Origin: Eledone cirrhosa
Taxonomy: Eukaryota
DNA length: 64,000 nt
Direction: 5' to 3'
Assembly: GCA_964016885.1 (NCBI GenBank)
Contig: OZ024742.1
Location: 67,022,001 to 67,086,000, forward strand
In this document: piece after piece, positions 2,736-56,744 of the stretch
How the letters are laid out: every line of letters starts with the position of its first letter
Numbering within the stretch: the first letter of the stretch is position 1
Made by a program: the position numbers and the translations under genes
The notes under the pieces: model-generated
The model's input: the letters and a program-made list of their open reading frames with translations, nothing else
The model's database searches: none
What the model was told of the DNA's origin: nothing

Positions 2736-3640
2736 ATTCATTAGTTAAGCAAAACAAGACCACAAATTTCGCAAGGAAGACATTATTAAAAGATTGTCAA
2801 CATATTTTAGTTTGATATAAGGAATGTAGAGAATAATAATAATAATAATATTAATAATAATAATGTCCGTTTACAATTGTTTCGCTACTCCATATAATAT
2901 TTCTGGATCAAATGACTATATATCATTATTCTACAATGGCTCTCAATTAAAAAATTAGCACTTAACTATAAACTACCCATAATTTCTAATCTCTCGAGGA
3001 GTTACTTCTCTAATTAGTAAGGTAAATATGTCTATTGGCGGCCATCGTGTTATCCATAGGCAGATCTCACACAATGCAGCCTCGACAGATGAATACTGCT
3101 TGATTATGGCTGACAATTGATACACCCAGGACACCATAGTGAAATACCAATATAAGGAACATTACATTATGTAACATTCTTTCCTTCTCTTAATTTATAT
3201 GCCCTTGAAGTTCCGAGGAGCCGTTCTGTTTTTAAATATGTTAATTATTTTCAACTGAACCAGATCAATAATGATATATAGTCATTTGATCCAGAAATAT
3301 TATAAGGAGTAGCGAAACAATTGTAAACGGACATTATTATTATTAATTTTATTTTTATTATTCTCTACATTCCTTACATCAAACTAAAATATGTTGACAA
3401 TCTTTTAATAATGTCTTCCTTGTGAAATTTGTGGTCTTGTTTTGCTTAACTAATGAATATTTCCAGCTCTGCGCGCCTAACTTCTGCATGAACCCAGCCA
3501 CCTAGCTGCTTTCTACTGCATATTGTACATTGAGCACATGTCTTTACGCTTTGGTTTCTAACTAATTCACCAATCTTTCCTCTCCTATCTCCTCTCCTAT
3601 ATCCATCTCTCTCTTTAAGATTGGTTACTCTTTAACTGTG
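2733..3640 (+). mobile_element. PLE pLTR-like fragment with inverted short arm, between (TA)n arrays
   Basis: 2733-2930 is the reverse complement of 3268-3460. The 3' half of a hammerhead (gc GAAA caatt GTA aacgg) lies at ~3312-3331; the CUGANGA core is lost. Confidence 0.6.
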
Positions 3641-3939
3641 TATATATATTATATATATATATGTAATATATATATATATATATATATATATATATATATA
3701 TATATATATATATATATATATATATATATATAATATATATATGTAATATATATATATATATTATATATATATATGTATATATATATATAGTGTAGTGGAA
3801 ATCAGGAGGTCGGAGGTCATATCCAACGTTGATAGAGGACTCAGTGCAAATAACGCGGTCGATATATAGTTGATTTCAGAAAAATTATTAAATACGCATA
3901 AACATTTCTTGCATATTCTTTTTAAAACTTTTGTATAAT

Positions 3940-4860
3940 ATGTACTGAGCTTTAATCGTGATTATTTTGATATCCACCAACATTTGATAGAAGTAAAGGA
4001 TGAATTAACGAAAACACTCCCATAATTGTTTAGCTTAATACGGTACACACTAATACCGCTTAATATTTTCTAATAGAGTTTATTCAGTATTGGCTTAAAA
4101 ACACCAATTAATTTCATCTGGCCTCCATGTCTAATCTCAAGTTTCAAGAACAACCAGCGATGATAAATACACACCAACAGACGCCGGTGTAGTTATGTGC
4201 TATCACGAAAACAAAATTTCTGATAAGTAATTAGAAATGGAGACTCTAACATTTATTCATGCCTATATTGGAAGCGGAGATTCCATGAAATTAACTTCAT
4301 TGCAACAAACGGTAGATAAACTACAGGAACTAGAAAATACTATGAACTCTATAAAGACACATCCAATTCTGGAGGGAATTTAGCAAAACTAACTACACTT
4401 ATTAAATGTTTTGAGAAATATTACAAATGCATAGACAAATCGAAACAAATGTTGATTTTAAATTTCCAGACACAAAACCATACAATTTCGTCATAATTTA
4501 TCATCTTCAAAATATATGTTCATATATTACTTTAACTTAGGCTTAACAAATACGCACAATTGTCTCCCATCCCATTATAACAGAACAAAAACTAGCAGAT
4601 GTAGAATATAACTTAACCATCCGAATATTCCCCAACAGTTTCGGGATAGATAGAATACAACGAACGAATAAAATATGGGCAAAATACGATCGAAAAAGTG
4701 AAAATCATTACTCACAAATGCAAGCATTCAGAAAGTGATTCTTATCTATGAGTAATAACATGCGCAAGAGCTAATTGCTAAATTATGAATATATACTGCA
4801 AGGCTTAGAATTCAGATTATAAGATGAACACATTTTTTTATTCGAAAAGGCGTTTCACAT
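3940..4860 (+). pseudogene. Highly decayed PLE RT-thumb/linker remnant
   Basis: Broken frames resemble PLE KPTD..Y / NL...I.TIVS (pdtkpy...irtivshp) and a CxRxxC linker (CARANC). Flanked by (TA)n. Confidence 0.4.
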
Positions 4861-52800: not shown

Positions 52801-55800
52801 ATGAAAAGAGAGTGATCCCATTGGGACGCTTGCTAGAAATTGTAATTTACTCTCCATTAAAGAATCGCATATTTAACATCATAATGCCTGATGTATAATT
52901 TATACGTGACACCATGTCCATATGAAATCAATGTTAATGAAATTACAGATTTACGTGAAACAAAATCCACATACAAAATAAGTGATGACTTCTATAACAA
53001 AGATTTGGGCTTGACCACCGAAGAAAGTAATTATCACAAATCATCGCAATTCCAACTTTTAATATACGACTTTTAAACTATAGAGAGGAAAATAACTTTA
53101 TAACAAGAGGGTGCCATAGGGAGGAACTGGAAGAATCAATATGATGGATTTAGTTCTGTTCTATCGACAATATTCGACGTATCTCCAATAGTCATAAACC
53201 TACCAGTTTGTGTTAAGCTGTTTTGTTGTATTTGTGTTGATTTCTAACAAGCCAGTTTGCTGGCTCTGCCATGCCTGTAGAGTTTATTCGGAAATTGTTG
53301 TACTAAATTTCGCAATATCAGACCAATCACTTTACAGAAACGCTCCTATTTCCAGTCTTGAATGTCCTACAGAAAAGAATATGCTGATTATTCTCCTTGA
53401 AGATACGAAAATCTTCCGGTCATCTAAAGCAAAATAAATTAGCCATTGCTCCGTCCGATTTAAGAGCATGCCCTTTGGTGGGCTCCTCCATTCTCACTCA
53501 CATATAAATCAACTGACACATCTGGAAAAACGTCTTATTTGCAGAGCTCCGCCACACCTTATAGTGCAGAGATTCCGAACCCAGCGATTAAGACTTTCTT
53601 CAACATCTTTTTGCATGTGCTGAACTCGATTATTTGCAGAGAAAGAGTGGAGAGACATCGCAATTCTCTGTCTCTAGTTTGCCAATTCTTGTATAAACTT
53701 TGTATAATTTATATAATAAGCTAATATTCGTACATATTTGAAGATTGTTGGGGCGATTAATTGGACCCTAATATTTGATGTAATCATAATACATTATTCC
53801 GCAAGGTTTAAAGACCGAATATGCATGTACATAAATTAATACTGCAAATAATTGATCCTGGTACTTTAGATGCGATTGCTGTTTAAATATATAAATTTGT
53901 TACGTATTTCGAGGATAATGCTATCAAACACATCCCATGAACAGCTTATTAATAATTTAACCGTTCGAGTAGTAAACTACTTTTTAAAAAAAAGTCCTTT
54001 CTTGTGGCATTATCCATAACAATTGTCCTCTCTGCTTCCTCTCTCTCAACACTTACTCCGTTGTTTCTGCTTGACGGTCAATAGACAATCCATATAAAGT
54101 TTTGATGATCTCTCCACTTCAAAAAGAGCAAATATAATTTCTTACTCGTTCAAAACGTATTCCGAATGGAATGAGTGGGGTTTTCTGAGGTAAGTAACCA
54201 TTTAACACACACAACAACAAAAAACAAAAAAAAAACATTCATTGTAGATTCCAGCACATACAAACTTCAAAGGAACTTTTCAGGCTTTAAACACAATACA
54301 ATATATCAATTACTTCGACAATTGAAGAAACTTCAGTACGTGTCTGTGATTTTTGTTATGCGAGTAAACTGGATTTGAACTCGGGGGGCGAAGGTGAAAT
54401 TAGAATTTAGTCTAGCAATTATTCATTTGTTCTATTTACGGTATCATGGTAGTTGTTTCTTCCATTACTTATACCACAGCATATAACCAATATTCATTAT
54501 GTGTCTTTGAAGAATTGGATCTAATAACATAGAAGATCAAAACTAATTACTGTATTATATTTGGGAGAAATTTTTAATCTATCGGCTTTTATTACAAATA
54601 CAGAATTACTACTTTTCCATCATATCAACATTGTTAATCTGTTTAATTACTGAGTTAAAATCAACAAAATCAGCTTAAGCTAAACTGCAAGCCGTCTAAT
54701 TAATTAACAATAACCCAATTACGAAAATAATGGTTCAAACATTTTTGTTTCAGTTTTATATTATTATGAGATTTTCGTGGTATATTTCAAGGTATTCTTG
54801 TATTATCATTTACTGACCTGACATCCAGAATGAGATTGATACACAGAGGTGCATAGATCATTAGGGAACAAATACACTGATTAACATAAATTCTTGTCAC
54901 CGAATTATGTATCATTATAGATAATATAGTGGGAAAATACGTTTATCTCGTGGCTCATCATTATATGAAATTATACACCCAAAGGTGAAACGTTCTTCTA
55001 TAATATAAAGATTCTCTGTGGAAGCTAACGTTTCTATCACGATTATAGCAATACATATTTTTATACTCAGAATGTATTTTGAAACAACAACATAAAGGCC
55101 TGCTTGTGTATTCATAAATATATAAAATAAATATAAACATCCATATATTCTTTATATCCGAACATGAAGTAACAGTTGAAAATCCACCACCAGTTATTGA
55201 ATTACCATGGACTTAGCAAAATTCAATGCAAATGTATAACAATAATAGCGAACAGAATGATAATTTGTAATGTTCACAATGAAAGAGCGGCACAAATCTC
55301 TTTACGAATCCAGTGAGATCCAGAGAATTAATCATCATCAACCACATCATCGTTTAACATCCATCGTCCACGCTAGGAACATATCAATCAGCTAGAAGGT
55401 GCCAACAGCAATATAAATAAAGAGATATAAATATCCAAAGAAATTGCGTTTTACCTATGCAGGAAGGGCACACTAGTTAGTGTAGACTTGAGAAGCAGAG
55501 ACATATAAGTGCAACATGAAGCAGGCAGACGAATGCGTCAGCTGAACATTTTTAGCTAAATAAAGCGAAGAGTTTCTCATTACTCTCTCGCAGAAGGATT
55601 AAAATAACCAGAAGCAGACCAGAACACAAATACAAAAATACAATTGATTCAGAAACTCGAAATCACTGGCAACAATCAAACCTTGAGGTCTAGGTTTGCT
55701 AGCAATATAGCCAACTAAAATCTCTCACAAAGCGAGTGTATATATAATCTGTGACTGACTAATTGTTCACATTGATAGCAATGTCATTTTGCAAATGAAT

Positions 55801-56656
55801 CATTAATCCCATTGTGCTGCATAACTGTAAAGAGAAATCACAGGTAATACTGATTATAAGGTGATGGAAATAATCCTGCTTTTGTCTTTAGTCAAATACG
55901 TTTTATTTTACACAAATGAGACAATAAATATAAATACAGGTGTAACATCAAGTTCTATGTTAAGCTGTGTTATGCTGTTTTCCGTTTCCAAGACGTCGAT
56001 AAATATTACCTTTCTTGCAAAATCTCAAATATGTCTAGCCTTTCCCACTACAATTAAATTCCATCAATCAATTAATCAATACATACATACATATATATAT
56101 TAAAGTAAGTTTAGAAAAACCCATTTTATGAGAGAAATCAAGATAGACAAAACACTCGCGGATATATAGACACTGGTGGACTGGCCAGGTTGCCAGGTTG
56201 CCCAATGGCATGTGGGCCCCTTGGGGCACACTTGTGCATTGCAGAGCCCACTGTAGTATTTTAGGGGCCAATGCTTAGCTTTCAAAACATATCTGATGTC
56301 TGAGAGAAAGAATAACATGTTTTTAAAATAAATTAAACTATTAAGTAAAGGATTTGGTCAACCACTTCCCCGGGGAATTAATAGAAACCAAAATATATGA
56401 TAGTGCAAACAGCTGGCATCAGTGGTTGTACATTCTACTAAATCTAAAGCTTAATGTTTTCATGCATACAAACATACGTATATAGACACACGCACAGAGA
56501 AGCATATACATATATATATATGTATATATATATATTCAGAAGATCCCGTTAAGTGTGAAAGCAGCGATTATTTGCTTAAACTTTAATCTGTTATTTTAAT
56601 TTAAAATATATATATATATATATATATATATATATATATATATATATATATATATA

Positions 56657-56744
56657 GGAACAAGTATTACCCACTCTACTACTCTAAGTATTGAGTACTT
56701 TGGTGCGTTTTGGTCCACCTGGTTCCTTACCACATTTCCTTCGT
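56657..56744. mobile_element. 88-bp PLE end fragment inside (TA)n
   Basis: The first 16 bp match 63319-63334 and the last 24 bp match the orphan insert at 23357-23380. Contains TACTC-taagtatt-GAGTAC. Confidence 0.65.

Follow-up and report, generated by a model that had tools for sequence, protein, structure and literature searches.

Paired bulged hairpins near the insertion ends of Hydra-clade Penelope-like elements in Eledone cirrhosa

The closest described relatives of the elements considered here are the Penelope-like elements (PLEs) of the Hydra clade, which in the main text of Craig et al. 2021 (PMC8557442) are alike in protein motifs, in a hammerhead ribozyme within the pseudo-long terminal repeat (pLTR), in (TA)n targeting, in tandem and inverted insertions and in a tail present on one side. 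The present elements were found in a window of 64,000 nucleotides of Eledone cirrhosa DNA (assembly GCA_964016885.1, contig OZ024742.1, positions 67,022,001 to 67,086,000 of the forward strand). The genome (3.0 Gb) is rich in (TA)n, and self-comparison of the window shows several TA-flanked inverted repeats of which one arm continues as a tail. A covarying bulged hairpin is present in two copies in these elements, one beside each of the two positions at which insertions end, and insertions with a short and a long arm end there with TA microhomology. The main text of PMC8557442 gives a tail of 30-40 bp, ascribed to resolution by the endonuclease (EN), whereas here the tail is mostly 60-190 nt and matches the hairpin spacing; that main text does not contain the word 'hairpin' and describes no such motif.

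In PAc (Poseidon, Anolis; Frangieh et al. 2024, PMC11167929), two internal starts of the reverse transcriptase (RT) bound the tail; PAc cleaves and extends both strands of an AT-rich target, has an upstream hammerhead and is predicted to be a dimer. According to the accessible text, PAc has one 'AC-rich stem loop' within the open reading frame (ORF), with initiation inside it, whereas the Hydra sites here are in the 5' untranslated region (UTR), 5' of each stem. The study concerns one element, and its accessible text reports neither a cross-family motif nor a second hairpin and leaves the one-sided tail unexplained; an RNA fold in its figure S2C may bear on the novelty of the hairpin motif. 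The origin of inverted pLTRs with a one-sided tail is posed as an open question in the accessible text of both papers (PMC8557442, PMC11167929). Earlier work covers the elements themselves, their tail, TA targeting and internal initiation; the bulged hairpin pair and the way it relates to both insertion ends are apparently undescribed, no description of the motif having been found by full-text literature searching, which misses most subscription journals.

Twin priming by L1 also produces an inverted, truncated insertion, both target strands being primed on one RNA. In L1 the internal site used by the second primer is a matter of chance and there is no overlap between the arms, whereas the Hydra sites are fixed by structure, the arms duplicate the same sequence and the outcome is the rule rather than an accident. 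In telomerase, a short 3' DNA end aligns on the RNA beside a protein-bound stem, and Hydra hairpin priming would, by analogy, resemble this arrangement of TERT and its RNA.

The hairpin motif and the elements that carry it

The hairpin that follows the short-arm end (site 1) is designated H1, and a second hairpin past the tail end is designated H2. The original prediction was that a hairpin of the form RCTC...GAGY lies near the short-arm ends of insertions in the window, to be judged genome-wide against shuffled endpoints. The sample outside the window consisted of 14 blocks of 100 kb (1.4 Mb), in which a motif-blind detector searched the sequence adjoining each TA run for its own inverted copy, TA being required. 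Its 195 hits comprised 143 asymmetric repeats (9 in the window), 49 symmetric repeats and 3 that were dropped. Outside the window, the RCTC...GAGY rule was satisfied by 53 of 134 asymmetric repeats (23 of 61 clusters) and by 48 of the 101 repeats with a tail of 25-350 nt (19 of 43 clusters), compared with 0.9 of 101 in dinucleotide shuffles (maximum 4) and 1.8% of random sites. By this test, set beforehand, the hairpin is enriched near short-arm ends and extends beyond the window. In the offset control, one family scores at -32 too and the remaining offsets give 1-7. About half of the tailed repeats are without the motif; where an ORF could be assigned to these, it places them in other PLE groups.

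In full, the motif reads R-Y-U-C-n-n, a loop of 5-67 nt, then n'-n'-U-N-G-A-R-Y, in which two stems, P1 and P2, are separated by a 2-nt 3' bulge; the simple hairpin of 4 bp first proposed lacked the bulge and the second stem. Pairing was tested in 35 hairpins of this genome, one per family and site, with anchors picked by sequence alone; the anchoring fixes the inner P1 pairs and the bulge U, and these therefore carry no test. Two duplicate clusters were dropped from this set, one probable false anchor was kept, and families were counted without weighting by a tree. An alignment of 28 hand-picked hairpins, selected on pairing and with three rows out of register, is excluded from the counts. 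The outer P1 pair is formed in 31 of 35 hairpins (22.7 in shuffles) and the successive P2 pairs in 34 of 35 (22.6), 29 of 35 (17.6) and 21 of 26 (11.0). With the 2-nt bulge register, the first two P2 pairs are both formed in 29 of 35 hairpins, versus at most 9 with any other register. Both stems covary, in agreement with the compensatory change originally claimed. G.U pairs on the sense strand outnumber A.C pairs by 13 to 4, and H1 and H2 within one element may differ, one being ACUC/GAGU and the other GCUC/GAGC.

All nine motif-bearing families that could be tied to an ORF (9/9) are Hydra-clade PLEs by comparison of their protein features with the published description, while families of two other PLE protein groups have a different sequence after the short arm. 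The families had been called unrelated; they are unalignable as nucleotides and belong to one clade, two intact proteins being 50% identical. Intact ORFs of 717 aa and 713 aa encode an RT with a C-terminal GIY-YIG domain and no N-terminal EN. DKT replaces DKG in proteins P0001 and P0002 and in the window ORF, and the motif RWK of the family labelled 40.6-kb is RWR in P0001 and P0002; a CxCx5C linker and CxxC and CxH around conserved E and N are visible by eye in the intact ORFs, from which CCHH is absent. The Pfam GIY-YIG match is weak (E 0.012, below cut-off, in one of two proteins), and a PDB sequence search with the Hydra protein gave no match. The fold of the predicted Hydra protein (pLDDT, a per-residue model confidence, 93) matches RTs, the best being TERT (3du5, 9swn, 6zdu) with TM-scores of 0.33-0.36. 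In several families, pattern matching places a putative hammerhead ribozyme core 57-240 nt upstream of site 1, on the sense strand; the usual core pattern was unmatched in the youngest family. (TA)n follows nearly all of 90 loci selected by their tails. The one full tandem unit that was measured is 3531 bp and has a long 3' UTR, whereas published Hydra elements are 'generally' shorter than 3 kb.

Naiad elements, which have an N-terminal EN ahead of the RT, a CxC linker and no canonical hammerhead, were considered and ruled out by the C-terminal EN and the hammerhead cores. Identity of the motif with hammerhead stem III (ACTC-N-GAGT of several Hydra ribozymes) was also ruled out, the motif lying tens of bases downstream of the core and having a bulge and a second stem. 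Rfam at the gathering score gave no matches in 19 loci, and its matches in the window were sub-threshold and driven by microsatellites.

The second hairpin, insertion ends and other hosts

In copies that run past the tail end, into either a 5' UTR or another tandem unit, H2 starts within about 10 nt of that end, just upstream of the ORF, at approximately 40-90 nt before the start codon. Of 12 families for which a continuing copy exists, 11 have H2, eight of them from the blocks and three more by search (relaxed rule; 1.6% of random sites); for four families the search demanded CTC after the tail end and left the 3' strand free, and families 7, 8, 17, 28, 50, 58 and 64, which have no identifiable element continuation, are outside this count. 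The search in the family labelled 7.0-kb returned nothing and is uninformative. Within an intact tandem unit (3531 bp), H1 and H2 are the only matches to the strict motif; they are 78 nt apart, the typical tail is 80 nt, and the start codon is 87 nt past H2. The corresponding spacing and tail in two other families are 172 versus 174-176 nt and 89-90 versus 85-91 nt. The tail thus appears to be the spacing from H1 to H2, and H2 itself would never be copied into the insertion end.

There are 273 TA-flanked arm ends in the motif families: 123 just before H1, 146 at the tail end, where the reference sequences stop, and 4 elsewhere. In 81 of the 123 site-1 ends, the final base that can be assigned unambiguously is 6-9 nt ahead of the stem, at any loop length from 5 to 67 nt, and both insertion ends are approximately 3-10 nt 5' of a hairpin copy. 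At least 3 nt are shared with the TA run by 91 of the 123 site-1 ends, against 28-38 expected, and 20 of 25 families have a TAT or ATA word 2-9 nt ahead of H1, against 8-12 of 25 in upstream windows. Inverted pairs are 66 short/long, 3 long/long and 1 short/short, with 129 such ends unpaired; without the discovery copies, 13 are short/long and 2 symmetric. Among 87 loci selected by their tails only, an inverted TA-flanked partner was found by eye within 1.5 kb in 38, and in 37 of these the partner ends at site 1. The arms of 75 analysable insertions, out of 88, form near-perfect palindromes in 37; the tail-bearing arm is longer in 10, the tail-less arm in 7 (in further copies it contains the ORF), 5 are mixed and 16 unplaced. 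In the youngest family, the arms carry common subfamily variants, and the centres differ between copies (spans 46-171).

Hydra elements of other hosts provide a comparison. Scanning of marine metagenome contigs yielded 77 Hydra loci, grouped into 64 families, with approximately 40% identity to the protein here and hosts that are presumably animals. The strict motif occurs within 260 nt upstream of the ORF in 29 of 35 clean full-length copies, 43 hits having been counted in 7.8 kb of upstream sequence, as opposed to 3 in antisense and to 6 in the ORFs (70.9 kb); it follows the 3' hammerhead in 16 of 24 copies. Among 26 metagenome families with enough 5' sequence, 17 have two hairpins and 1 has three. 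The metagenome P2 pairs are formed in 35 of 41 (26.3 in shuffles), 28 of 41 (17.2) and 21 of 26 (11.0) hairpins, and all seven TA junctions for which a continuing copy allowed comparison sit 6-10 nt before a hairpin. The motif is also exact, by eye, in three of the six new Hydra consensi given in the accessible part of PMC8557442 (Hydra-2_Amil, Hydra-2_Ajap and Hydra-1_Ajap, from coral and sea cucumber); it occurs twice at the 5' start of Hydra-1_Ajap and is degenerate in Hydra-1_Crog.

Three readings of the ends and centres were rejected. An apparent third end site (cluster 18) is explained by a tail-less arm with a tandem junction inside it; copying of the palindromes as whole units in the youngest family is contradicted by its varying centres; and a palindrome centre at the ribozyme cut is unsupported, arm lengths being widely variable. 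A separate observation concerns the palindrome at window 18790-18916: of the best-matching copies at loci L001-L010, 9 of 10 have an identical palindrome centre (127 bp, situated at the 5' foot of hammerhead stem I), which may be a selection effect, a preferred pivot or the result of whole-unit copying.

Proposed priming on a hairpin pair and rival explanations

The hairpin pair, located between the hammerhead and the start codon, probably docks a predicted dimeric RT-endonuclease, such that both (TA)n strands are primed on one RNA. Each protomer would bind one hairpin on the same RNA; the 3' TA end of each nicked strand would anneal to a UAU or AUA word just 5' of the stem; the two cDNAs would extend toward the RNA 5' end, often reaching a common broken RNA end, with the trailing one displacing the leading one; and the cDNA ends would be joined head to head by microhomology. 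Priming of one RNA at two hairpins would account for a short and a long arm, common variants in both, frequent palindromes and the occurrence of either arm as the longer. Of the role first proposed for the motif, namely positioning of the second priming event or of the endonuclease cut, what is retained is a conserved, covarying cis element whose distance from the short-arm end is fixed and which likely positions priming; it is not restricted to a 'second' event, because a second copy lies beyond the tail end and the motif marks both ends. The endonuclease-cut role agrees less directly with the TA microhomology.

The near-perfect palindromes and the ten insertions with a longer tail-bearing arm would also be produced if a cDNA primed at the tail end (H2) folded back and was copied until it stalled before H1, or if an antisense RNA primed itself as for rotifer PLEs; the arms would carry common variants in this case too, and palindromic junctions are interpreted as self-priming in the accessible text of PMC3846280. 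Fold-back is nevertheless unlikely: in 7 of 17 placed cases the arm without the tail exceeds the other in length, and in further copies it contains the ORF, which is impossible for a copy of a tail-bearing cDNA; start and stop would need equal offsets from an identical motif, and TA microhomology is present at the short-arm end. Either arm can be longer if each subunit or ribonucleoprotein (RNP) has its own RNA, one priming via H1 and the other via H2, a scheme that accommodates the four symmetric pairs and to which tandem arrays would contribute multi-unit transcripts. Independent choice of site predicts that about half of the pairs should be symmetric (observed 4 of 70), independent truncation does not predict equal-length arms in 37 of 75 insertions, and no arm pair from two subfamilies was seen among the copies read, all of which makes two RNAs quite improbable.

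Covariation by itself cannot separate RNA from single-stranded DNA, and the hairpins might be recognition sites for the EN on DNA or on an RNA-DNA intermediate, which is cut at a fixed distance 5' of the stem. This 'EN-mediated resolution' is the cause of the tail given in the accessible text of PMC8557442, and the tail in D. virilis is required for EN recognition, as retold in that of PMC11167929. In the latter source, however, PAc tail ends coincide with in vitro RT starts; here the ends track TA words within a window of 3-15 nt with no single exact offset, and sense-strand G.U exceeds A.C in this genome, so that a purely EN-directed role is very unlikely. The position of H2 shortly before the start codon, the TAT/ATA words before H1 in 20 of 25 families and one family with a sharp tail end and no H2 would fit hairpins that are protein sites for RNP assembly or translational control, the ends being set by TA-like words alone. 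As TA words are also found at other places in the AT-rich UTRs (upstream windows of 8-12 of 25 families), and all but 4 of 273 ends nevertheless fall at the two sites, this is highly improbable as the entire explanation, though such a role and a priming role could coexist.

Several points weigh against priming on a hairpin pair. Binding, initiation and dimerization are predictions for the Hydra proteins, and the first start of PAc is inside its AC-rich stem-loop rather than 5' of it, according to the accessible text of PMC11167929. Half of the insertions are near-perfect palindromes, which fold-back explains equally well, and arm identity cannot separate one RNA from two RNAs of one locus. Pairing is full in only 6 of 11 H2 copies, and H2 is often weak (0 to -4 kcal/mol in 7 of 10); the abundant family labelled 18.8-kb, which has an intact ORF, has ACTC without a partner in place of a canonical H2, yet its tail end is sharp. 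The covariation counts give related families equal weight. Among the 26 metagenome families, 4 have no hairpin and 4 only one; in the metagenome set the outer P1 pair is invariant and uninformative and G.U exceeds A.C by only 9 to 6, so that the RNA-strand argument rests on this genome. The motif was not seen by eye in two of the six consensi in the accessible part of PMC8557442, Hydra-1_Amil and Hydra-1_Obim.

A more general proposal, for and against which the case is evenly balanced, is that the geometry is encoded by the RNA: the hairpin pair would load the two halves of a telomerase-related RT-endonuclease, hairpin spacing would be the PLE tail, the motif would be conserved across several animal phyla in Hydra elements, a hairpin pair of their own would be used by other PLE clades, and any RNA bearing a pair could be written into (TA)n. 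A hairpin pair that sets the start on each DNA strand, as is likely, would explain the long-puzzling 'tail' of the Hydra elements. A short motif at a fixed distance from both ends reduces the tail question to an experiment in which the motif is mutated, compensated or moved, for which the recently amplified intact element (tandem array, 717-aa ORF) offers test material. The motif is a candidate minimal cis element for a telomerase-related RT, and it offers curators a rule by which the real termini of Hydra elements, and of the non-autonomous partners of these, can be recognized.

Features of the window and neighbouring observations

The features of the window are collected in the table. Predicted coordinates agree within 1 nt at 3466-3535(+), 7065-7040(-), 18783-18765(-), 28608-28632(+) and 30280-30304(+). 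The partners of the ACTC at 21217 and 40734, thought to be distant or decayed, are both intact at a distance of 55 nt, and at the site near 10242 ACTC is present and its partner decayed. The site at 28607 is a real H1 but lies in an inner tandem unit, and it is the copy at 28026-28002(-) that faces the short arm; the site given as 56680-56698 is a true copy on a tail-only insertion, for which a duplicated ACTC at 56681 had been used. The predicted copy at 40379-40409 is a look-alike, its homologue from a non-Hydra family being without ACTC.

Table. Hairpins and related features of the window (loop lengths in parentheses)
Feature	Position	Strand	Sequence	Context
H1	3466..3535	+	GCTC TG (56) CA TT GAGC	short arm 2734-2930 paired with 3267-3460; tail to about 3649
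H1	7040..7065	-	GCTC AG (12) CT TC GAGC	after palindrome 7074-7262; tail 69 nt
H1, missing from the original prediction	7358..7377	+		tail-bearing arm 7291-7440; no inverted partner found
Decayed H1	10243..10262	+	ACTC intact, 3' strand damaged	old copy of the 18.8-kb family
H1	18765..18783	-	ACTC TG (5) TA TT GAGT	after palindrome 18790-18916; tail 68 nt
Putative hammerhead ribozyme core	18826..18849	-		60 nt upstream of short-arm end; pattern match only
H1	21149..21217	-	ACTC CA (55) TG TT GAGT	after inverted arms 21222-22138 / 22390-23306; tail 176 nt
H1	28002..28026	-		tail-bearing arm opposite short arm ending 29135; tail 87 nt
H1 of inner tandem unit	28608..28632	+		
H2	28691..28732	+	GCTT variant, CC (28) GG TT GAGC	sole H2 found in the window; just beyond the point where the family's other copies end in (TA)n
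H1	30280..30304	+	ACTC TG (11) CA TA GAGT	after inverted repeat 29916-30273; tail 81 nt; H2 of this family present in 5 other loci
Look-alike, outside the system	40379..40409	+	first inner pair A.G	no inverted arm
H1 of element 40560-46160	40666..40734	-		short arm ends 46153; putative hammerhead core starts 40899(-)
Broken Hydra-type RT + C-terminal GIY-YIG ORF	42204..44385	+	DKT, YRDD, CxCx5C, YIG, CxxC/CxH	frameshifts, stops
H1	56673..56696	+		tail-only insertion 56657-56744, youngest family; intact tandem copies at locus L291

The largest inverted insertion in the window is that at 40560-46160, with the broken ORF inside; on the sense strand, its tail lies beyond the 3' UTR. Within it, 41722-46153 is a complex double inversion: after the ORF end come 780 nt of the 3' UTR in inverted orientation and a fold at 45179. 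A hammerhead tandem unit of approximately 540 nt at 27951-29135 (also at loci L214, L216 and L222) has both hairpins and no ORF was seen in it; it is likely to be a non-autonomous, retrozyme-like partner of Hydra elements. Outside the window, locus L291 and the loci G000:C1:91.48 Mb and C1:437.20 Mb contain head-to-tail arrays of full-length Hydra elements with a period of approximately 3531-3543 bp and near-identical intact ORFs, that at L291 spanning 1456-3609.

Other PLE groups in the sample have signals of their own. In two non-Hydra groups (window 1161-2030 and 59300-63300; blocks C2, C3b and C5), a different bulged stem, GTT(T)...CT AA(A)C, starts 4-8 nt after the short-arm end; one group is tied to an RT at window 60899-62900, and the other is a hammerhead unit in 466-nt tandems. 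A second copy of the stem was sought in the GTTT..AAAC non-Hydra family, and the search returned only host flanks and no continuing copies. At window 40151-40460 and in block C3b, the continuation of a third PLE group was found, with ACACAATGC in the tail; in the window copy this 9-mer is repeated beyond the tail end, a hint of a second site in the third group. AC-rich words that follow the short arm in several non-Hydra families are reminiscent of the AC-rich loop of PAc. Palindromes free of the motif, decayed or with TA on one side, are present at window 49049-49549, 59128-59193 and 9812-10010, and a SINE-like (short interspersed nuclear element-like) repeat of approximately 190 nt occurs in eight copies, at 12748, 15126, 17320, 20304, 20501, 23620, 30597 and 49748.

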